DNA from: an uncultured Verrucomicrobiota bacterium
GTDB lineage: Bacteria; Verrucomicrobiota; Kiritimatiellia; PWTM01
Length of the DNA: 64,000 nt
Assembly: GCA_964610105.1 (NCBI GenBank)
Contig: CAZSUU010000005.1
Location: forward strand, 97,499 to 161,498
Direction of reading: 5' to 3'
In this document: piece after piece, positions 1 to 62,887 of the stretch
How positions within the stretch are numbered: the first letter of the stretch is position 1
How the letters are laid out: each line of letters begins with the position of its first letter
Program-made: the position numbers and the translations under genes
Notes under the pieces: generated by a model
Database searches by the model: none
Told to the model about the DNA's origin: nothing
Seen by the model: only the letters and a program-made list of their open reading frames with translations

Positions 1-2324
1 GCGGTCAGCCCCTGAAGATCCTCGACCACGTCCGGATCGGACATCTCGCGCCGGACCTCGTCGTAGATCGGTTTGCGCGTGAGGGCGAAGAAGCCGCCGA
101 GATCGTCGCGGATGTACTTCACCTCGCGCCGGTTCTCCTCGTGCGCGCCCGCCAGCCGCTGCAGCGCCGACACCTCGGCGCGGCCCAGCCGGCCCGTCTC
201 CATGCCCACCGTCCGCGGAAGCATCTGACGCAGGCCGGCCCCCAGGTCCTCCTCGCGGCGCGCCGCCTCGCGCAGGCGGTTGATGAAGTTGCGCGCCGTG
301 AACGTATCCAGCGAGTCGCTCCCCGACTCGATCATGCCGCGCAGGGCCTCGAGGGCGGCCGCCTGCTGCTCCATCGCCTGCTGCAGATCCTCCGACCGGC
401 GGGCGGCGTTCATGGCCGCCTGGCGCATCGCCTGGGCGGCGCTGTTCATCGGCCCGCCGGCGGTCGACTGCATCCGGGCGGCGATCTCCGCCCACTCGCG
501 CAGGGTGGCGGCGGCGACGTCGCGGTTGCGCAGGCCCTCGCGGGCGAGACGGGCCAGATCCTCCGCCAGCCGCTGCACCTGCGCGGCGTTCATCCGCTCG
601 CCGCGCTCGTTCTCCGCCAGCGCCTGCTCCGCCCGCGCGGTCGCGAGGGCGTGGGTGTCCTCCGCGAGGCCGGCGTTGGCATTCAGCAGACGCTCTTCCT
701 CGCGCACCGCCTCCTCGAGCCGAGTCTGCAGATCGCGGAAACGCTCCTGCAGAAGGCGGGCGTGTTCCGCGCGGCTGAGCACGAAGATCCGGTACACGGG
801 CGATTCGGAGGGCGTCCGGTCCGGGAAGTAATCCATCGCCCGGGCGCACACATTCAGGGTGCTCCCCTCGCGAATCCCCAGCGCCACGGGGGAGAACGCC
901 GTCGAGCCCTCCAGACGGGTCCGGTCCGGGGCGCCCGCGGCCGGCGCCCGCGAGCGCACGGCGGGCGCCGCGCCGCCTTCCGCCCGCTCCTCCCACCAGT
1001 CCACCCAGAGACGCTGCACCCCGAAATCGTCCGTCGCGATGACCTTCATCGTCACGGTCTCGTCCTCCAGGATCGCGACCGAGCCGCGCAGGCCTTCGCA
1101 CTGGAGGAGGGGCGGCTCGTCCGACCGTCCCCGCAGCTCCAGCCGGAAGGGCGTGGTGCAGTGCAGGCCATGGGTGTCGGTCCAGCGGAACTCGATCGCC
1201 GCCGCCCGCGGCGGGCCGCCCGTGGCCGGCGCCGGGCCGCCCAACCACTGATCGAGCGGCAGGGCTTCCGTGCGAAAGACGGCGCCGGATACCGCCAGGG
1301 GCCGGACGGTCGCACGGCTGACCTCCGCCGCGGACACCGGCCGGTTCGCCTGCCCCTCGAAGGCGACGGTGGCGCCCTGCAGGATCTGGATCGAGGCGTT
1401 CTCGACGGGCAGCCGGTCCGGCGCGCGTCCCAGGTAGCCGGGCCACTGAACGTCGGCCGCCAGGCGCGCCAGCTCCGGCCTGTACATCGGCCTCAATGAG
1501 AGGTGTCGGGTCGCGTCGCCGGCCCGGACGTTGAGCCGCCCGGCCCGTGTCTGCCCCGGGAACCTGAACACCGCCAGGCCCCCGCGGAACACGGCGCTCA
1601 CCACCGGTTGATCCTCGATGCGCGCCTGGGCGGCCGCCGGTTTCCAGCGCGAGCGGTCCTTCAGCCGGCACGCGATCTCGAACGGTTCGCCGTGCGGCAC
1701 GACCAGCTCCGCGGGCAGCGCGTCGAGGCCGACGAAGGTGTAGCGTTCGAGCGGCGCGAGCGGCCGGAACCACCGCGAGAGCGCGTTGCGCGCCGCCTCC
1801 GGCGCGACCCACACCAGGACCGAAACCCCGCCGAGCGCGGCCGCGGCGGCGAGCGCGAGCCGGCGCGGCCGGCGGGTGTCGACCGCGCGGCGGAAATCGT
1901 AGGCGCGGGTCTCCGCCGCCACCTGCCGGATGGCCGCGCGCCGCAGGGCCGGCGAGACGACCTCCACGTCCGTCCCGTTTCCGGCCAGCTCCACCGCCCC
2001 GAGGAGCCGGTCGCCCATCCGCGGGAAGTGCCGCTGAACCAGCCGCGAGAGCGCACGGGCGTCCCGGCGCGCCCATCCCCAATGCCCCGCCCACCACAGC
2101 AGGACGGCCAGGGGAGCCGCCAGGCCCGCGACCGCGAACAGCAGACGCAGGAGGCGCGGCGTGTCCACCAGCCGGTCGAAGCCGAAGAGCAGCAGATACC
2201 CCGCGAGGAGCCCCGCCACGCCCGCGCCCGCCGCGGCGACGGTCTCCATCCCGCGCAGCCGCCCCTCGAACGTGCGCAGCTGCTGCTTCAGTTCGTCCGG
2301 AAGCTCTGGGGGCCACCTGTTCAC
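1..2324 (-). CDS. Large membrane-anchored, coiled-coil-rich protein of MoxR/BatA clusters (3' end runs off the window)
   Basis: Open frame from GTG 2324 (VNRWPPELPDELKQQLRTFEGRLRGMET...LLFGFDRLVDTP) to the window edge; N-terminal TM helices then helical Glu/Arg/Ala-rich region; last gene of the MoxR operon. Absent from the ORF track because it has no stop in the window. Confidence 0.75.
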   Translation of the reverse strand, partial: MNRWPPELPDELKQQLRTFEGRLRGMETVAAAGAGVAGLLAGYLLLFGFDRLVDTPRLLRLLFAVAGLAAPLAVLLWWAGHWGWARRDARALSRLVQRHFPRMGDRLLGAVELAGNGTDVEVVSPALRRAAIRQVAAETRAYDFRRAVDTRRPRRLALAAAAALGGVSVLVWVAPEAARNALSRWFRPLAPLERYTFVGLDALPAELVVPHGEPFEIACRLKDRSRWKPAAAQARIEDQPVVSAVFRGGLAVFRFPGQTRAGRLNVRAGDATRHLSLRPMYRPELARLAADVQWPGYLGRAPDRLPVENASIQILQGATVAFEGQANRPVSAAEVSRATVRPLAVSGAVFRTEALPLDQWLGGPAPATGGPPRAAAIEFRWTDTHGLHCTTPFRLELRGRSDEPPLLQCEGLRGSVAILEDETVTMKVIATDDFGVQRLWVDWWEERAEGGAAPAVRSRAPAAGAPDRTRLEGSTAFSPVALGIREGSTLNVCARAMDYFPDRTPSESPVYRIFVLSRAEHARLLQERFRDLQTRLEEAVREEERLLNANAGLAEDTHALATARAEQALAENERGERMNAAQVQRLAEDLARLAREGLRNRDVAAATLREWAEIAARMQSTAGGPMNSAAQAMRQAAMNAARRSEDLQQAMEQQAAALEALRGMIESGSDSLDTFTARNFINRLREAARREEDLGAGLRQMLPRTVGMETGRLGRAEVSALQRLAGAHEENRREVKYIRDDLGGFFALTRKPIYDEVRREMSDPDVVEDLQGLT

Positions 2325-2411: not shown

Positions 2412-4616
2412 TCATATCTGTCCCTGCCATTTCCGCGCCACCCAGTAGGCGGCGAGCAGACCGACGACGAGCGCGGCCCACAGGGGGTGACACCAGAGGC
2501 GGAATCGCCGCTCCTCGGGCCTCCGGTCCGGCAGCACCCGCACCGCCTCGATCAGCCGGTCGAGGTCCGGCGTCCCGACGCAGAGGCCGCCGGTGATGTT
2601 CGCCACCTCGCGCAGGACCTCGGCGCGCGCGGGGCGGCCGATCTGCTCGCGCCGCGGCTGATGGACGGGGATCGCGGCCGTCACGCGCCGGCCGGTGTCG
2701 AGGCACACGGCCTCCGCCGCGTATTCGCCCCCCTCCGTCGCGACGAACGATCCTCCGCTGACGCCCCACCCGCCGGGGTCCGGGAGCAGGTCGACGATCT
2801 GCGACGCGCCGCCGGGCGTCCGCAGATGGACCTGCACGCGGGCTTGGTCGATCGGCGCCCCGCCGGCGTCGAACGCCGTGGCGTGGAGGAACACGCGATC
2901 GCCGCGGTTCGGCGCCTCGGGCACGAAGAAGAAGCGTATGCCCTCGGTGTGCGCGAGATGGCGCTGGTGGGCCATCCAGCGGACGACCTGGCCCCAGAAG
3001 CGGTAGTGGTAGAAGTCCTCCACCCCGCGGCGCCAGCGCCAGGCGCTGTCGGTGCCCATGAACAGGACCTTGCCGTTGCCCGCCGCGCGCGTAACCAGCA
3101 GGGGGATGCGCCCCGACACGTTCCGCGCGTCGGAGTGAACCGCCAGCACATCGCCGCCCGGCTTGGCGCGCACCACGGGCGCATACCAGAAGAAGCCGGG
3201 CAGGCCACGCCAGACCGACTCGTTCTCCTCGGCCGTGCCGGCCAGCAGGGTCAGGAGGTGGCCCCGGCCCCGCGTCGTCAGCGCCAGCCGCGATTCGAGC
3301 GAGAAACCGAACCCGCCCGGGGCGCTCTCGTCCAGGACCACCGGCATCAGATCGGCGAGCGGCGACGTCCGCAGGCTGGACTGGCGCCCCATCGGCCCCG
3401 GCAGGAACACCAACCCGCTCGCCTGCTGCTCGACGAGGCCCCGGATCTGCCGGACCTGCTCCTCGGTCAGGCCTTCCGGCCCCATGCCGACATCGCCGAG
3501 GAACACGACGTCGTACTTCGACAGCGCGTCGCGGGTCCCCGGGAACGCGGAGAGGTAGAACCGTCCACCGCCCGGCCCGAGGCCTGGATGCAGAAGCAGG
3601 CAGTCCACGTCCGCGCCCGGATCGCGCACCAGCGCGTTGCGCAGGTAGCGGTACTCCCAGCGGGGCGCGCTGTCGATGAGCAGCACCTTGAGCACCTCCC
3701 GGCGGACGGCGATGTGGAACGCGCGTTCGTTGTTGTCGCGCCGGATCTCTTCGGGATCCGCGGGAAGCCGGAGCTTGAGCGCCTGGTCGCCCTCGGCGGA
3801 CGGCACCCAGACCACGCTGGCCTGCGCCTGCGCCATGGGGGGGACGACGATCTCCCTGCGCGCGACCACGCCCGCCCCGCCCTCCAGCTCGACGGTGGCG
3901 CGGATCTCGCGCGGGATGCGGCTCTGGACGGTGAACGGGAGGTTGATCTGCTCGTCGACCAGCCCGTAGGCCGGCACCGCCACCGCCTGGAGTTCCAGGT
4001 CCGGCAGATGCTTCTCGCTGCCCACGGCCACGCAGAACACCGGCGCCTCGCGGGCGCGCAGGCGTGTCGCCGCGCCCACGGGCGAGAGCCCCTCGTTCCA
4101 GTCGCCGTCGGTCAGCAGCACGACGGCGCGCAGATTGCCGTGCAGGGTGACGGCCCGGTCAAGGGCCGCATTGATGTCGGTGCCCGGATCCGGCGAGGCC
4201 CCCTCCTCCTGGGGCGGGGCCGCGAAATCGGCCGTCTGGACCTCGTAGAGGGATTCGAGGGGGGTCCAGAAACGGCGGGCTTGCTGTTCCGCCAGCCACG
4301 CCTCGCGGGCAAGGACGCCGGCCACCCCCCCGGTGGCCACCGCCACGTCCTTCGTCGCCATGCTCCCCGAACGATCGGCGAGCACGACAATGCCGGGCTT
4401 CCGCTCCCGCTTCACGACGTGGACGCGCTCGGGCCGGAGGAGGGTCAGAGCGAAGGCGGCCACGGCGGCCACCCGAAGCGCGTCGGTCCACCGGATGCCG
4501 CGACGGACGCGGTCGCGACGGACCTGGCGGACGGCCAGCGTGACGGCCAGCAGCAGGGCCGCCGCCACGGCCGCCAGGCGCCACGACGCCAGATCGAATG
4601 ACCAGAAGCCTTCCAT
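2412..4616 (-). CDS. vWA domain + glutamine-amidotransferase-like (DUF1355-type) membrane protein
   Basis: vWA MIDAS-like 'LADRSGSM', 'LLTDG'; 'VLLIDSAPRWEYRYLRNAL', 'YDVVFLGD', 'TDSAWRWR'; terminal TM helices. Confidence 0.8.
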   Translation of the reverse strand: MEGFWSFDLASWRLAAVAAALLLAVTLAVRQVRRDRVRRGIRWTDALRVAAVAAFALTLLRPERVHVVKRERKPGIVVLADRSGSMATKDVAVATGGVAGVLAREAWLAEQQARRFWTPLESLYEVQTADFAAPPQEEGASPDPGTDINAALDRAVTLHGNLRAVVLLTDGDWNEGLSPVGAATRLRAREAPVFCVAVGSEKHLPDLELQAVAVPAYGLVDEQINLPFTVQSRIPREIRATVELEGGAGVVARREIVVPPMAQAQASVVWVPSAEGDQALKLRLPADPEEIRRDNNERAFHIAVRREVLKVLLIDSAPRWEYRYLRNALVRDPGADVDCLLLHPGLGPGGGRFYLSAFPGTRDALSKYDVVFLGDVGMGPEGLTEEQVRQIRGLVEQQASGLVFLPGPMGRQSSLRTSPLADLMPVVLDESAPGGFGFSLESRLALTTRGRGHLLTLLAGTAEENESVWRGLPGFFWYAPVVRAKPGGDVLAVHSDARNVSGRIPLLVTRAAGNGKVLFMGTDSAWRWRRGVEDFYHYRFWGQVVRWMAHQRHLAHTEGIRFFFVPEAPNRGDRVFLHATAFDAGGAPIDQARVQVHLRTPGGASQIVDLLPDPGGWGVSGGSFVATEGGEYAAEAVCLDTGRRVTAAIPVHQPRREQIGRPARAEVLREVANITGGLCVGTPDLDRLIEAVRVLPDRRPEERRFRLWCHPLWAALVVGLLAAYWVARKWQGQI

Positions 4617-57384: not shown

Positions 57385-57432
57385 AAATCGGAAGGCCAAC
57401 AACATAGGGATTCGTTCCGACTCCGAGTCGGC

Positions 57433-57680
57433 GAGTAGAACAGCTCGATCCCGCTGTAGCTGATGCGCAGCGTCGCCGCGCCCCAGCCGAGTTCCTCCTT
57501 GCAGTACAGCCGGTACTCGCGCACGTCCTCCTCGCTGATGTCCTCCACCGTCGTGCAGGTGAAGTTCTGCAACGGCCGCATCGCCCGCAGGTACGACTGC
57601 GCACTGCGTTTCTGACGGTTCTTCCGACTCAGGTCTGCTGCAAACCGCTCGTAGATGCCGTCGTTCATCCTGCTCCTCAT
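57433..57680 (-). pseudogene. Truncated tyrosine recombinase (N-terminal SAM-like domain only; type usually paired with IS91-like transposases)
   Basis: 'ERFAADL...RSAQSYLRAMR......EDISEEDVREY..Y...E..W..ATLRISYSGIELFY'; homology stops near 57433 with no catalytic RHRY domain. Confidence 0.75.
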
Positions 57681-57784
57681 GGGTTACCACCCTGAAGGGC
57701 AAGACCGGCCTGCCCGCGAATGTCATCCCGCGTATCCCAGAACGACGGTGTCCTTGACAACCCTGCCGCGCCGCGGTTACTTGG

Positions 57785-57850
57785 ACCACCGGCTGCACCG
57801 TATTCCTCACCCGCAGCGGGTCCGGAATCCGGTGAGGCGTAATGTTCGGC
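57785..57850 (+). other. Degenerate attC-like site preceding first cassette
   Basis: Imperfect hairpin CACCGTATTCC...GGAATCCGGTG ending in R' GTTCGGC (57844-57850); R'' not intact. Confidence 0.4.
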
Positions 57851-57859
57851 AATAGGAGC

Positions 57860-58963
57860 ATGGCCATGACAAGGTTCATGTGCATGGCGTTGATGGTTGC
57901 GTTGACCGTCATTTCCGCTCCCGAGAGAGCGGTGGCGGTGAACGTGACCGACTTGACCTTTGTGTACGGAATCTATGGCGGCTGGTCCTACTATCACGGC
58001 ACCGTGGCGGTTAATGGCGGGTCAGCCGGAGAATGGACGGCTCGCGTCGATGGCAGACCGGCGTTGGGGTATTTCTTCAACCCCTTGAATTCAAGCATGA
58101 CGGGAGGATCGGTCACCAACCTCGGCAGCCTGGCGGGAGGCTACAAAGCCGCATGGCTGATCGACAATTTCGCGCTTGGGCTCGGAAACGAGGGCACACC
58201 AGCGGGCTGGGCTGGAGATCCCGTCAGCAGCGAGAACAAGCGGGCGGCTCTGGCCCTCGCGGTATTCGAGGTGGGCATGTCGCCCCCCGGCGACCCGCTT
58301 GATTTGGATGCCGGACACTTCAAGTTGTTCTTCACAGACGCTGTGCTTGTCAGCTTCGGCCAGGCCTATCTCGATGCGCTCGCGTCCGCGTCGCCAGACG
58401 AGTCGGCGTTGGAGGCCAAGTATGATGTTCTCATCGGCAACCAGTGGAATGGAAACGCGTATGCAACCTGGGTGGCCCTCGTGGAGCAACCGGTGCTGAA
58501 CCGAATTGATGTCGCCCCGTCGAACGCCACGCTTCACGTGGGGGAACAGCGCATCTTCGCCGCTGCCGGCACCGATCAATTCGGTTATCCCATGGCCTTC
58601 ACGCCGATCTGGTCAGCATCAGGCGGACCCATTGATGGCACGGGCTACTACATGCCGACGAACTCCGGCGTTTTTGAGCTCATCGCCCAATCCGCGGGCT
58701 CCCCGGTCCGGGGCACCAGCGTCGTAACGGCTACCGCCATTCCCATCACCGGCCTGACGCGCGGTCCCCCATTCGCTCTGACCTTCCCGAGTTACACGAC
58801 GACCCTGTACAGGCTTCAGCACAAGTCGAACTTGATGACGGGAGACTGGACCGACCTGCCTGGCGATGTGCGGGGTGTGGGTGGCCCCATGATGCTGACC
58901 GACACCAACGACGTCCTGGAGTCGATCCGCTTCTACCGACTGCTCTACTCTGTTGCGCCATGA
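57860..58963 (+). CDS. Cassette-borne secreted protein with Ig-like and C-terminal FYR-type domain
   Basis: RBS AGGAG, signal peptide, 'IDVAPSNATLHVGEQRIFAAAGTDQFG', C-terminus 'YRLQHKSNLMTGDW...IRFYRL'; AT-richer; followed by attC. Confidence 0.78.
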   Translation: MAMTRFMCMALMVALTVISAPERAVAVNVTDLTFVYGIYGGWSYYHGTVAVNGGSAGEWTARVDGRPALGYFFNPLNSSMTGGSVTNLGSLAGGYKAAWLIDNFALGLGNEGTPAGWAGDPVSSENKRAALALAVFEVGMSPPGDPLDLDAGHFKLFFTDAVLVSFGQAYLDALASASPDESALEAKYDVLIGNQWNGNAYATWVALVEQPVLNRIDVAPSNATLHVGEQRIFAAAGTDQFGYPMAFTPIWSASGGPIDGTGYYMPTNSGVFELIAQSAGSPVRGTSVVTATAIPITGLTRGPPFALTFPSYTTTLYRLQHKSNLMTGDWTDLPGDVRGVGGPMMLTDTNDVLESIRFYRLLYSVAP

Positions 58964-58977
58964 CGATCACGGAGATC

Positions 58978-59037
58978 GCCGAACCCGCAAACGCGGCCCA
59001 CCCCGCTTCGCTCCGAGGCGGGTGCGCGGCGTTGGGC
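58978..59037 (+). other. attC site
   Basis: R'' GCCGAAC and R' GTTGGGC bracket an imperfect palindrome, 15 nt after the cassette stop. Confidence 0.75.
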
Positions 59038-59272
59038 CACTTGAAAGCGGATACCGATGTCAGAGAAGCGCAGGAGACACGGACACGCGGGCGCGGCGGA
59101 GCATGCTCTCCTGGCTCACCGCCAGCGGGTTGGCACGAAACGGGCCGGGGCGCTCTCCACGGCCCCATTCACCTCCCGGACTGCGCCGAACGGCTTCGCT
59201 GGGTTGCCTGTCCCGCCATAGCTCCTGTGCCGCGATAGCTCCGCAGGGGCGACGGCGGATGCCATCTCGCCT

Positions 59273-59459
59273 CGCCCGGTCGGCCTTCCATGGGGTTCTT
59301 GTTCATCCGCTCGCGGCTCTTGCCTAGTCTTCCTCCAGCCGGACGGTGGCCCGCCCGACCTTGACTTCGGCGGGTGCTTGCCATGATGCTCTCGCTTCAT
59401 GTTCGACTCTCGCACTGGGGACTTGAAGCCCATCAGGACTGCGGCCATGCTGGGCGCAC
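59273..59459 (-). mobile_element. Group IIC-type intron 5' fragment inserted in attC (copy A)
   Basis: Minus strand begins GTGCGCCCAGCATGG at 59459 immediately after attC bottom-strand ...GT; no domain V or RT downstream. Confidence 0.8.
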
Positions 59460-59515
59460 ACCACGGCGTGCATGGTAGGCTCGCCAGCTCGCCACCATGA
59501 CGCCGACGTTCGGTG
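59460..59515 (+). other. attC site split at R'' by intron copy A
   Basis: (A)AC-CACGGCGT-GCATGGT...ACCATG-ACGCCGAC-GTTCGGT. Confidence 0.8.
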
Positions 59516-59558
59516 AGTAGACAAGGCAGAGATGCAATAGTAGTCTATGGATATCCTC

Positions 59559-59768
59559 ATGAACACGTATACAGCAGTAACAAAACGAGATGGTGATTGG
59601 TGGATCGGCTGGATCGAGGAAGTACCGGGCGTAAACTGCCAGGAGCGGACGCGTGAAGAACTCCTTCAGAGCCTAAGGATCACCCTGAAGGAAGCTCTGG
59701 ACTTCAACCGCCACGAAGCCATCGAAGCTGCCTCTGCCGATTTCTCAGAAGAACCACTCACGGTATGA
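59559..59768 (+). CDS. hicB: HicB-family antitoxin
   Basis: 'YTAVTKRDGDWWIGWIEEVPGVNCQERTREELL.SL...LKEAL'. Confidence 0.88.
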   Translation: MNTYTAVTKRDGDWWIGWIEEVPGVNCQERTREELLQSLRITLKEALDFNRHEAIEAASADFSEEPLTV

Positions 59769-59953
59769 AGCGGCAGCAACTGCTCAAGCATCTCCGAGAG
59801 CACGGATGCGTGTTTGTGCGAGAGGGCGGCAGCCATTCATGGTGGGCAAATCCCCAGCAGAATAGGCGTTCATCAATCCCTCGCCACACCGAGATCAGGG
59901 ATCTGCTGGCAAGGAAGATCTGCAAAGATCTCGGCATCCCATTTGTGAAATAA
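59765..59953 (+). CDS. hicA: HicA-family toxin
   Basis: 'MKRQQLLKHL..HGC...REGGSHSWW.NP.....S.IPRH.EI...LARKICK.L.IP'; ATGA overlap with hicB. Confidence 0.9.
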   Translation: MKRQQLLKHLREHGCVFVREGGSHSWWANPQQNRRSSIPRHTEIRDLLARKICKDLGIPFVK

Positions 59954-59954
59954 T

Positions 59955-60046
59955 CACCAACCATCGCCTCCAGTTCACGGCTTGTCCGGCACGCCTTTTG
60001 CGGAGCAGAAGTCGCGTTAGCCTGTGCCGATGCTGAGGCGTGACGT
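59955..60046 (+). other. attC site (R' GT|TGGCG split by mini-intron)
   Basis: R'' CACCAAC, arms CATCGCCTC...GAGGCGTGAC, R' GT at 60045-60046 completed by TGGCG at 60286-60290. Confidence 0.8.
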
Positions 60047-60285
60047 GTGTGCCGGGCATGACTGATGACTGAGAGGGGAGAGACCTCCGTCCAGGTAGGC
60101 GCGCAGCCGAAGAACTAGTGGAAACACAAGGGCTGCCGTCGCGAGGCGGGGTCTGAAGGAAGTGCAACCCCAAACGGGGGCTTCCCAAGTTGCAGGAGGT
60201 TTGCCAACGGAATCGCCGGGTACGTGATCCGTATGCCCGGGTGGTGTGGAAGAAGCGGCCTCGCGAGGCGCCCCCTTATCCCGAT
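60047..60285 (+). mobile_element. ORF-less 239-nt group IIC-type mini-intron
   Basis: 5' GTGTGCCGGGCATG; domain V GAATCGCCGGGTACGTGATCCGTATGCCCGGGTGGTG (60210-60246) with CGC triad; domain VI ending CCTTATCCCGAT. Confidence 0.85.
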
Positions 60286-60349
60286 TGGCGGAGAAGAAAA
60301 GAGAACTGCGGTCGATCAGGGTCGGGGTCGGGGTCGAAAAGGAGTCGGC

Positions 60350-60510
60350 ATGGCCTTCGGACACGAGAAGCTGGACGTCTATCGCGCCGCCATCGAGTAC
60401 GTCGGCTGGGCGTATCGGTTCTGCGAGGCGTTGGCCACAGAGGAAAACGAGAAGGCCAAGGCCCTGCCGGACCGGATCGTGGCGATGCTTACAGAGCTCG
60501 GGCACCGGCT
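60350..60510 (+). pseudogene. Four-helix-bundle gene cassette with internal deletion, 3' end fused to intron fragment
   Basis: 'MAFGHEKLDVYRAAIEYVGWAYRFCEAL|ATEENEKAKALPDRIVAMLTELG'; preceded by GGGGTC hexamers and RBS AAGGAG. Confidence 0.78.
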
Positions 60511-60530
60511 GTCGCAGGCGCGATTTCCTC

Positions 60531-60717
60531 CGCCCGGTCGGCCTTCTATGGGGTTTTTGTTCATCCGCTCGCGGCTCTTGCCGAGTCTTCCTCCAGCCGG
60601 ACGGTTGCCCGCCCGACCTTGACTTCGGCGGGTGCTTGCCATGATGCTCTCGCTTCATGTTCGACTCTCGCACTGGGGACTTGAACCCCATCAGGACTGC
60701 GCCCATGCGGGGCGCAG
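60531..60717 (-). mobile_element. Group IIC-type intron 5' fragment inserted in attC (copy B, about 96% identical to copy A)
   Basis: 8 mismatches over 187 nt vs 59273-59459; starts CTGCG (G1 mutated) after bottom-strand TTGT. Confidence 0.8.
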
Positions 60718-60775
60718 ACAACAGCTCGGACGTTATCGTCGCGAAGCGACCCGAAACGTCAAGGTGACGTTCGGC
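60718..60775 (+). other. attC site split at R'' by intron copy B
   Basis: (A)ACAACAGCTC-GGACGTT...AAACGTC-AAGGTGAC-GTTCGGC. Confidence 0.75.
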
Positions 60776-60785
60776 CGGAGAATGC

Positions 60786-61267
60786 ATGAATACGGTTGCG
60801 GATAGTGGTACACGTCGCAAGTACCTTGTGTACCTCGCCGGATTCGCGGATGAACTTCGCGGAGCCGAGGTGGTACTGAATGATGACATTGAGCGTCTCA
60901 ATCGAGAGTTGGACGGATTCATCCAGCAACCCAAGGCCAACGAATGTGAACTCCCTCTGATCAAAGCCCTTGAAGACTCCCGCATGACGACAATCGCAAC
61001 GGCCCCAAGTACAACGTCATAAGGCCGTTCTACGCAAAGACACCGTCCCAGATGGGTGAGGATTTCGTTGGGTTCACCTTTGGCCAGTCTAAGCCGGATT
61101 CAGACGGTTTCGTGAGGCTCCGCTGCATCGTTCCCGTGAAGCCATTGCGGGGTTGTGCGGGGCAGCCAGAAGAACTCCGGGCGAAAACCGAAGGGTGTGT
61201 GTCCGTCTCGACGAGAACGGCAAGGTTCGGGGATTCGAAACAGAAGAACCCAATCGGGTCCCCGTGA
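60786..61267 (+). pseudogene. AT-richer cassette ORF, apparently frameshifted
   Basis: ORF 60786-61022 and a second frame open from about 60975 to 61267 overlap; starts 11 nt after attC. Confidence 0.4.
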
Positions 61268-61289
61268 CTGACTGAGGGGTACTCAGCCA

Positions 61290-61390
61290 GCCCCGGGTCC
61301 CCCGCCACCCTCCTTCGGCTACTCGTTTGCGATCCTGATCCTCCGGGAGAAGACGTGAACTCCATTAGTTCTTGGACGTGCTGGGCGTAC
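61290..61390 (-). mobile_element. Third group IIC-type intron 5' remnant (different lineage)
   Basis: Bottom-strand TTGT|GTACGCCCAGCA..GAACTAATGGAG...TAGCCGAAGG. Confidence 0.6.
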
Positions 61391-61443
61391 ACAATGAAAG
61401 GTCCGCACGTCGGCGCCGCCCGACGTGCAGCCTTGGGTTGAGC
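61391..61443 (+). other. attC-like site split at R''
   Basis: (A)ACAATGAAAGG..GCACGTCGG-cgccgc-CCGACGTGC..CCTT..GTTGAGC. Confidence 0.6.
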
Positions 61444-61723
61444 ACGCCGCGGGGCCATGGATTCTGCACGGCCGGCGGGTTCAGCGCGGGAGGGCCGTGA
61501 GCGGGAGCGCGGAACGGGCGGGGCGAGCGCGGGAGACGGGAACTGCTTCCATCGCACGGTGTGCAACCGCCGGGCGCGATGCGGATGGGGCCGGACGGGT
61601 TGCGCGTGATCCCGGCCCATCGGCGGCGGTGCCGCCGCGGGGGGGGGAAGAGAGGACCGTCGTACGTTCCTTGTCTTCCTAGGTGGCCTGGAATCTGCTT
61701 CTCTGCAGGTCGGGTGAGACGCC

Positions 61724-62887
61724 ATGAATAGACGCCTGAAACGGATGAAGCGGCTGACGGCGGGGCTGGCATGGGCGGCGGGCGCGGCCTGCGGCGCCGA
61801 GATACCGTGCGCGATCTTCCCGTCGAACAGTATCTGGAACATGCGCGTGGACGTCCTGCCGGTCCATCCGGCCTCCGCGGCCTTCATCGCGTCCATCGGC
61901 TCGAACACCGGCTTCCATGCCGACTTCGGCGCCGGCCTGTGGGAAGGGGGGCCGATCGGCATCCCGTTCGTCGTGGTCCCGAGCCATCAGCCGAAGGTGG
62001 AGGTGGACTTTGAATACGCGAACGAGAGCGATCCCGGCCCCTACCCCATCCCGCCGGACCCGCCGATCGAGGGGGGACCGGCCTCCACCGGCGACCGCCA
62101 CATCCTGATGGTCGACGCCCAGGGTGGCATGCTCTACGAGCTGTACAGCGCCTACACCAATGCCGACGGTTCGTGGCGCGCGGGATCGGGGGCGATCTTC
62201 GATCTCGCGTCGCACGCGCTTCGCTCCAACGGCTGGACGTCCGCCGATGCCGCCGGCCTCCCGATCCTGCCCGGGTTGGTCCGATACGAGGAGGTCGCCG
62301 CCGGCGAGATCCGGCATGCGATCCGCTTCACCGTCTCGCGGACGCGCCGCGCCTACGTATGGCCCGCCCGCCACTACGCGTCGAGCTACACGCAGACCAA
62401 CTACCCCCCGATGGGCCAGCGCTTCCGGCTCAGGAGGGATTTCGACATCAGCGGTTTCTCCAACGACGTGAAGGTGATTCTGCGCGCGATGAAGACCTAC
62501 GGCATCATCCTCGCCGACAACGGCAGCAACTGGTACCTCTCCGGCGCCCCCGACGAGCGGTGGAACAACGACCACCTGCAGCAGATGAAGAACGTCCGCG
62601 GCCGCGACATGGAGGCGGTGGACGCGTGCGTGCTGCAGATCCATCCCGATTCCGGCGAAGCCCGCAGTCCGATCCCCGGCATCCGCCATCTCCGCATTTC
62701 CGGCGCCCAGGCCAGCCTGGGGCTCGGCAATCTGCTCTCCAACGTGGGCTACCGCGTCGAGGCAGGGACCGGCCTCGCCGCCGGCGCCTGGCAGGAGGTC
62801 GGCCGCTTCACCGGCGCCGCCGACCAGCGCGAGTGGACCGGAGCCGTCGATGGCGCCCGGCGGTTCTACCGGCTGGCGGTCGAATGA
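61724..62887 (+). CDS. Secreted protein with C-terminal FYR-type domain
   Basis: Signal peptide; 'WN..VD.LPVHP.S', 'GIPF.VV', 'YPIP....IEGG', 'GDRH', 'AAGLPI..GL', 'YGIILADNG'; C-terminus 'YRVEAGTGLAAGAW...RRFYRL'. Confidence 0.8.
   Translation: MNRRLKRMKRLTAGLAWAAGAACGAEIPCAIFPSNSIWNMRVDVLPVHPASAAFIASIGSNTGFHADFGAGLWEGGPIGIPFVVVPSHQPKVEVDFEYANESDPGPYPIPPDPPIEGGPASTGDRHILMVDAQGGMLYELYSAYTNADGSWRAGSGAIFDLASHALRSNGWTSADAAGLPILPGLVRYEEVAAGEIRHAIRFTVSRTRRAYVWPARHYASSYTQTNYPPMGQRFRLRRDFDISGFSNDVKVILRAMKTYGIILADNGSNWYLSGAPDERWNNDHLQQMKNVRGRDMEAVDACVLQIHPDSGEARSPIPGIRHLRISGAQASLGLGNLLSNVGYRVEAGTGLAAGAWQEVGRFTGAADQREWTGAVDGARRFYRLAVE

Follow-up and report, generated by a model that had tools for sequence, protein, structure and literature searches.

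Remnants of group II introns devoid of a reverse transcriptase (RT) gene were found in four consecutive attC-like sites of an uncultured Verrucomicrobiota bacterium (Kiritimatiellia, PWTM01), in a stretch of 64,000 nucleotides (nt) of contig CAZSUU010000005.1 (assembly GCA_964610105.1, positions 97,499 to 161,498), hereafter the window. The remnants, designated c1 to c4, are 138 to ~310 nt long, and the first of the five attC-like sites is empty. A degenerate integron or a CALIN, a cluster of attC sites without a working integrase, is the description that fits the region 57.7-61.45 kb best. Retrohoming of group IIC introns into four of the five attC sites of a degenerate array, with later decay of the introns by deletion, is the reading we prefer, with a probability of about 0.85.

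Identification of the intron remnants

Group II introns are characterized by a 5' start GUGYG, the fold of domain 1 (D1), the catalytic domain 5 (D5), the branch-site domain 6 (D6) and an RT/maturase encoded in domain 4; those of group IIC insert directly 3' of a stem-loop and have a short intron-binding site 1 (IBS1, 3-4 nt) and an IBS3 of one base. The first intron bases are GTGCG in c1, GTGTG in c3 and GTACG in c4; c2 starts with the mutated CTGCG. The Rfam model RF02001 (group-II-D1D4-3) matched c1 at 59143-59356 with 35.4 bits, which exceeds the gathering score (32), and, below that score, c3 with 27.7 bits (E 0.003-0.01) and c2 with 25.4 bits (E 0.009-0.05). The 5' start and the D1 fold are thus represented in c1, c2 (apart from its first base) and c3 by these matches, and in c4 by homology. 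A D5 and D6 pair typical of the 3' end was not found in the remnants, which are non-functional members of the group. A domain-4 RT/maturase is encoded in none of them, and a search of the window for RT coding remnants (tblastn with two intron RTs) gave a best E-value of 2.

Homology to full-length introns is stronger evidence of identity than the Rfam matches. From an alignment of the 5' ends of c1, c2 and c4, a degenerate 37-nt pattern was derived; it matched these three alone in the window (0 matches expected by chance) and was also found at three loci in species-representative genomes. Full-length introns, scoring 100-104 bits with RF02001, are carried by two of these loci, L002, from a Kiritimatiellia metagenome-assembled genome (MAG), and L003; the closest intron relatives belong to MAGs of Kiritimatiellia and Verrucomicrobiales. 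The L003 intron (2583-4457) scores 104 bits with RF02001 and 41.7 bits with RF00029, encodes an RT/maturase of 464 amino acids (aa; TIGR04416, E=2.6e-114) and is antisense to both adjoining genes.

All four 5' exons are hairpins ending with GT, the exon ends being GTGGT/ for c1, GTTGT/ for c2, GACGT/ for c3 and ATTGT/ for c4 (the slash marks the exon-intron boundary), and every remnant begins right after this GT. The first base of the 3' exon is T for c3 and c4, and exons of the relatives show the same hairpin-GT pattern. At least three sequence lineages are represented, namely c1/c2, c4 and c3. The identification of the four segments as remnants of group II introns of the IIC type in attC-like sites is supported by these homologies and insertion contexts.

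Structure and boundaries of the remnants

Remnant c1 (at least 59151..59459, minus strand) comprises the 5' ~310 nt (D1) of an intron of the IIC-attC type and is 3'-truncated. Its 5' end lies at 59459. Position 59273, taken as the c1 boundary in the preliminary description made from the sequence alone, is merely the end of the repeat shared with c2, since similarity to the L003 intron and the Rfam match extend to 59151 and 59143, respectively. Alignment of c1 with the L003 intron yields two blocks, of 90% and 82% identity. On the left, c1 must actually end within 59038-59150, where no significant similarity to full-length relatives was found; blastn of c1 against plasmids gave no match.

Two proposals for the missing part of c1 were rejected. 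The hairpin 58978-59037, considered as its D5, is an intact attC (GCCGAAC...GTTGGGC), and no homology to c1 was found there. A 3' end at 59059/59060 (ACCGA/TGTCAG) would rebuild the R'' box ACCGAAC, the exact complement of GTTCGGT, and was rejected as unproven because such a 5-mer has a ~10% chance of occurring in a 113-nt stretch and the resulting end ...CTGACA is unlike the ...CCCGAT of the lineage.

Remnant c2 (60531..60717, minus strand; left end maybe at ~60517) is the 5' ~190 nt of an intron of the c1 lineage, likewise 3'-truncated. At its 5' end, 60717, the first base is changed from G to C, and the other end lies at a decayed open reading frame (ORF; ~60517-60531). Identity between c1 and c2 reaches 96% over 186 nt and breaks off exactly at the 5' splice site of each (59459 in c1, 60717 in c2), which indicates independent insertions into different sites and not a segmental duplication. 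Both are 89-90% identical (c2, 89.5%) over ~190-200 nt to the 5' ends of the RT-encoding introns of L002 and L003, and neither contains D5 or D6. Public contigs from many sequencing runs (L004-L008) all begin at 60679, inside c2, an assembly break attributable to the c1/c2 repeat; one contig was present in 19 samples.

Remnant c3 (60047..60285, plus strand, i.e., the cassette or top strand) is an internally deleted intron of 239 nt, both ends of which match introns of ~1.9 kb. The 5' ~130 nt are retained, along with a D5-like hairpin that carries two indels and a D6 in degenerate form; the 3' end is ...CCCGAT followed by T, and most of D1 is gone, exon-binding regions included. Its fold is no more stable than that of shuffled sequence (z=0.07).

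Remnant c4 (61253..61390, minus strand) is an internally deleted intron of 138 nt, with its 5' end at 61390, as had been proposed previously. It retains the 5' ~39 nt, a well-formed D6 (fold z=-3.6) and the 3' end ...CCCGAT followed by T; D5 is absent. The first 39 nt are 72% and the last 57 nt (D6 and 3' end) 81% identical to the L003 intron. The 3' end ...CCCGAT is common to c3, c4, the L003 intron and the plasmid introns described below.

The attC-like sites and the strands of insertion

The architecture of attC sites is R''-L''...L'-R', with boxes RYYYAAC and GTTRRRY, an imperfect hairpin and extrahelical bases, and a CALIN is a group of at least two such sites within a few kb. By inspection of sequence boxes and DNA folds, five sites with this architecture were called on the plus strand within 2.5 kb, each an imperfect palindrome with an ...AAC box on one side and a GTT... 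box on the other. The first, attC1 (58978..59037), was missed in the preliminary description. It is intact and unoccupied; its boxes R'' GCCGAAC and R' GTTGGGC are complementary at 6/7 positions, and the fold is an imperfect hairpin with extra bases in the 5' arm. The part of attC2 to the right of c1 (59460..59514) starts at the AC of R'' and continues with a hairpin and R' GTTCGGT (59508-59514). The site attC3 (left part 59955..60046, then 60286-60290) consists of R'' CACCAAC, a hairpin and an R' whose GT is split off by c3. The part of attC4 to the right of c2 (60718..60775) contains R' GTTCGGC (60769-60775). The site attC5 is represented by the left half of R'' (GAACCCA, 61246..61252) and by 61391..61443, where the remaining AC of R'' is followed by a hairpin of 9 bp and, at 61437-61443, by R' GTTGAGC.

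Removal of the remnants in silico, which the preliminary description had put forward as a check, restored the R boxes for c3 and c4 only. Deletion of c3 rejoins GT/T in ...GTGACGT/TGGCG, giving R' GTTGGCG, complementary to R'' CACCAAC at 6/7 positions, and the fold of the c3-free site pairs CCAAC with GTTGG. Deletion of c4 gives ...AACCCA/ACAATG..., in which R'' ACCCAAC is rebuilt, and a 7-bp pairing of AACCCAA with TTGGGTT (61433-61439) crosses the rejoined junction. For c1 and c2, whose 3' ends are lost, the half-site survives on the 5'-exon side only.

At the c1 and c4 sites, the arm adjacent to the intron has the extra unpaired bases; at the c3 site, it is the opposite arm. This placement, together with the plus-strand orientation of all cassette ORFs to the right of the recombinase fragment, assigns c1, c2 and c4 to the bottom strand (antisense) and c3 to the top strand (sense). 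The top-strand context before GTT is GACGT at three sites of the window and GGCGT at one, i.e., the target of the c3 lineage. Several of the original claims were borne out by these data: four intron-derived segments in four consecutive attC sites (from Rfam matches and homology to full-length introns), their start right after GT, insertion at R'' of the bottom strand in three cases and at R' of the top strand in the fourth, an origin from three lineages (at least), and the absence of an encoded RT.

Relatives of c3 and insertion into the top strand

The first ~128 nt of c3 are 72-77% and the last ~76 nt 80-84% identical to introns of ~1.84-1.96 kb from metagenomes and plasmids. Matches to c3 were found in 44 plasmid records, and two of these, pEC732_IMP14 (NZ_CP015139) and pPp47 (NZ_MG516912), are clinical or wildlife plasmids carrying full-length introns in class 1 integrons. 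The intron of pEC732_IMP14 is inserted in the attC of aadA1 at ...GGCTTAACTCAAGCGT/intron/TAGATGC, i.e., ...AAGCGT/TAGAT, and that of pPp47, to which the 3' end of c3 is 84% identical, in the attC of aacA4 at ...CATGTCAAACGT/intron/TAGATGC, i.e., ...AAACGT/TAGAT. In both, the gene ltrA is co-oriented with the cassettes. The L003 RT is ~50% identical to the RT of the antisense intron of plasmid pEc5706 and 47% identical to that of the top-strand lineage.

In a metagenome scan, exons ending with ...CGT/ were found in 26 of 122 pattern matches, among the matches listed. Within the same list, the loci of this type have exons RYYYAAC...hairpin...CGT/, with a 3' exon starting with T where known, and at 19 of the 21 loci whose flanks are long enough the nearest upstream ORF is co-directional, with 5-230 nt between its end and the intron (from a crude greedy ORF call). 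Insertion into the top strand is, as these relatives show, a trait of the lineage to which c3 belongs. The preliminary description had considered both the dense parasitism and the targeting of R' unusual; the density (four of five sites) stands, whereas R' targeting is the rule in the c3 lineage, including the two plasmid copies.

Several introns of the c3 type lack ORFs, namely those of L041 (637 nt), L075 (650 nt) and L077 (595 nt), as well as L047 (414 nt) and L014 (723 nt). The three of 595-650 nt are colinear over the full length with 74-81% identity, have the variant 3' end CCCGAA and occupy three different attC-like sites, which suggests that an ORF-less sub-lineage kept moving, presumably by means of an RT acting in trans. 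Locus L103 contains two full-length copies in tandem (1640 and 3580), the second starting directly after the 3' end ...CCCAAT of the first. The intron of L002 (1-1660, minus strand) lies 217 nt downstream of a co-directional metallopeptidase-like ORF (1877-2269, minus strand), although its hairpin looks like that of a bottom-strand insertion; L002 is perhaps no regular array of cassettes.

Organization of the locus

The GC content is 0.56-0.63 across 57.2-61.4 kb and 0.67-0.75 on either side, so that the array lies in a low-GC island. Integrons are distinguished by an intI gene, whose product has an IntI-specific additional domain, beside an attI site. A truncated tyrosine recombinase gene is located at 57428..57668 on the minus strand (Pfam PF13495, E=3.4e-8); it now encodes no more than the N-terminal SAM-like domain, ~80 aa of a protein of ~320 aa. 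A homologue search retrieved three short proteins only. Similarity to the closest relatives, P0002 and P0003, ends after ...ISYSGIELFYS, ~80 codons into the gene, from which truncation was deduced. The fragment may be the remnant of an integron integrase: its homologue P0002 scores about equally with TIGR02249 (integron-integrase; 64 bits) and XerA (68.6 bits), and the fragment itself, with its ~80 N-terminal residues too short for such a comparison, gave no TIGR02249 match at E<0.01.

No content was recognised in the segment 57038-57432 (minus strand), which replaces the remainder of the recombinase gene. In this region, a short reading frame ending with ...MDLHAFAAWLAARIRRMDRPARAG is located just ahead of the following gene, which encodes an S49 peptidase.

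The first cassette ORF (57842..58963, plus strand) encodes 373 aa and has no match in Pfam and NCBIfam. A toxin-antitoxin cassette (59547..59953, plus strand) consists of an upstream ORF of 73 aa, the putative antitoxin, for which no family match was found, and the HicA toxin gene (59765-59953; PF07927, E=2.3e-12). The short ORF 60351..60515 (plus strand), which runs into c2 and is without a Pfam or NCBIfam match, is probably a decayed cassette gene; by eye its product (MAFGHEKLDVYRAAIEYVGWAYRF...) resembles the N-terminus of a four-helix-bundle protein of the TIGR02436 type with the middle missing, a likeness unconfirmed by Pfam and NCBIfam. The last cassette ORF (60786..61022, plus strand; 78 aa) has no family match and is also called as a gene in the Logan contigs L007 and L008.

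Proposed history of the array and alternative explanations

The data above show what the remnants are, where they end, on which strands they lie and how the target sites are rebuilt; from them we infer the following mechanism and order of events. Mobile group IIC introns of three lineages would have entered four of the five attC sites by retrohoming, recognizing the folded single-stranded attC hairpin and a short ...GT/T motif. Three insertions would have occurred in the bottom strand at R'' (TTGT/T or TGGT/T), antisense to the cassettes, in the classical IIC-attC mode, and one, c3, in the top strand at R' (ACGT/T), in the sense orientation, from a separate lineage habitually using that strand. 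All four copies would then have decayed by deletion: c1 and c2 presumably lost everything 3' of D1 together with the left attC half and probably adjacent cassette DNA, and c3 and c4 lost ~1.7 kb of the interior, including the RT gene, with both ends kept. Incomplete reverse transcription yields 5' truncation (PMC7923331); 3' truncation and internal deletion are unlike this product and point to later DNA deletions. The remnants can neither splice nor move, since all lack an RT, c4 lacks D5, c3 lacks most of D1, and c1 and c2 lack D5 and D6, the first G of c2 being in addition replaced by C. The R boxes are split by all four remnants, and the sites are therefore most likely unusable for integrase-mediated excision; occupied sites would be poor integrase substrates. 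Truncation of the recombinase gene, which would freeze the array by itself, is a simpler explanation for a frozen array than the freezing of cassette excision by introns, proposed at the outset as a possible reason for the decay of the array.

Several points weigh against this history. The covariance-model search suggested in the preliminary description confirmed c1 with RF02001, as detailed above, gave sub-gathering matches for c3 and c2, and failed for c4, which has no Rfam match at all and is identified by its 39- and 57-nt homologies; the D5/D6 model RF00029 matched nothing across the 64-kb window. With the 3' ends of c1 and c2 missing, their insertion at R'' is deduced from a one-sided half-site. 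The attC sites were called from their architecture and from the target preference known for the intron lineages, and proof that the recombinase was an IntI is lacking, the fragment being too short and its closest homologue equally XerA-like. An allele with an empty site was not seen, as the window and all public Logan contigs with the downstream gene share 100% identity; in a search for variant alleles, the exact proteins HicA, SppA and the product of the 373-aa ORF were looked up and gave no match.

The unproven nature of the recombinase leaves some room for regarding the hairpins as ordinary terminator-like or repeat palindromes and the introns as products of generic IIC homing behind any stem-loop. 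Group IIC introns generally insert after terminator hairpins, and the attC5 hairpin scores as terminator-like on the minus strand. Nevertheless, the five sites share the frame RYYYAAC...GTTRRRY with complementary boxes, each of them follows a short plus-strand ORF in a low-GC island beside a recombinase remnant, and in bona fide class 1 attC sites both intron lineages occupy precisely the homologous positions, which makes this explanation highly improbable.

The internally deleted copies could instead be non-autonomous mini-introns, comparable to miniature inverted-repeat transposable elements (MITEs) and mobilised in trans by the RT/ribozyme particles of full-length relatives, in which case c3 and c4 did not decay in place. 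Their exact 5' and 3' termini and the apparent mobility of the ORF-less relatives of 595-650 nt are consistent with this. Reverse splicing, however, requires parts that c4 (D5) and c3 (most of D1, with the exon-binding regions) do not have, the c3 fold is no stabler than that of shuffled sequence, and neither the window nor the loci retrieved showed another copy sharing a deletion junction with c3 or c4, so that such an origin deserves very little credence. Selection of the c1, c2 and c4 stubs for outward promoters (Pout) driving downstream cassettes, as in S.ma.I2, also seems quite improbable. Pout promoters are located in the 5' part of IIC-attC introns (PMC3001079), and the HicA cassette follows closely on c1, as does the 78-aa ORF on c2; against this, no sigma-70-like consensus site was found in 57600-61800, compared with 0.8 expected by chance, a weak argument for a host whose promoter consensus may differ.

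Beyond the retrohoming and decay favoured here, a broader and doubtful proposal can be formulated. Top-strand, R'-targeting IIC introns (5' end GTGTGCCRGGCATG, target ...RCGT/T) might form a widespread, little-noticed guild specialised in attC sites beside the bottom-strand clade, with ORF-less derivatives that are still moving; both guilds would have saturated the present array (four of five sites), and their occupancy would lock the cassettes in place.

The locus illustrates how far parasitism of attC sites can go, with lineages on opposite strands all reduced to dead stubs that still split the boxes. It is also a case for annotation, as intron stubs break assemblies (public contigs end inside c2) and hide attC sites from integron finders. 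An intron in the sense orientation can be spliced from the cassette transcript and thus bears on cassette expression, as well as on mobility.

Comparison with known systems

The IIC-attC clade is defined by the phylogeny of the RT, in which the intron-encoded protein groups with those of S.ma.I2 and its relatives, and its assignment requires such a protein, which the remnants do not have. Insertion in the bottom strand at R'' was found for c1 (TGGT/), c2 (TTGT/) and c4 (TTGT/T) and not for c3. Introns of the IIC-attC group are reported to enter the bottom strand of attC at R'', with the target TTGT/T and antisense to the cassettes (PMC3001079, PMC7923331). Accordingly, c1, c2 and c4 resemble introns of the S.ma.I2 type in their antisense orientation and in their position at R'' of the bottom strand, between (T)TGT and T, and to judge from these features behave as classical IIC-attC introns. 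They differ in being RT-less fragments, the remnants of the array measuring 138 to ~310 nt, and in the exon end TGGT, not TTGT, of c1. In plasmid pEc5706 (NZ_MZ465529), an intron with ltrA lies antisense between dfrA16 and qacEdelta1, in the attC of dfrA16, at ...GCTTGT/TAAC; it starts with GTACGCCCAGCATGGGCATGAACTAATG, and the 5' end of c4 (GTACGCCCAGCA..GAACTAATG) resembles it.

The counterparts of c3 are the top-strand introns of pEC732_IMP14 and pPp47. They have the same orientation relative to the cassettes, occupy the same GT/T of R', are 77-84% identical to c3 at both ends and share its termini (GTGTGCCGGGCATG... and ...CCCTATCCCGAT). In contrast to these introns of class 1 integrons, c3 is a 239-nt RT-less deletion derivative and belongs to an array on the chromosome of an uncultured bacterium with high GC. 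Insertion at R' of the top strand is not new, since the lineage is already present in clinical class 1 integrons. An intron of Enterobacter cloacae with an 'unusual target' in the attC top strand was reported by Rodriguez-Martinez et al. (2012), as cited in PMC7923331, and may be the same as the plasmid copies examined; our survey suggests that sense-strand introns targeting attC sites are much commoner than this single published case implies.

The truncated introns UHB.F1 and H.ha.F1/F2 of CALINs (PMC7923331) are likewise fragmentary, non-functional and located in attC clusters without a working integrase. Those copies are 5'-truncated, in keeping with incomplete reverse transcription, whereas in the present array two copies are 3'-truncated and two internally deleted. 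The locus is thus a new and unusually dense case of a known host-parasite relation, that of group IIC introns specialised in attC sites.

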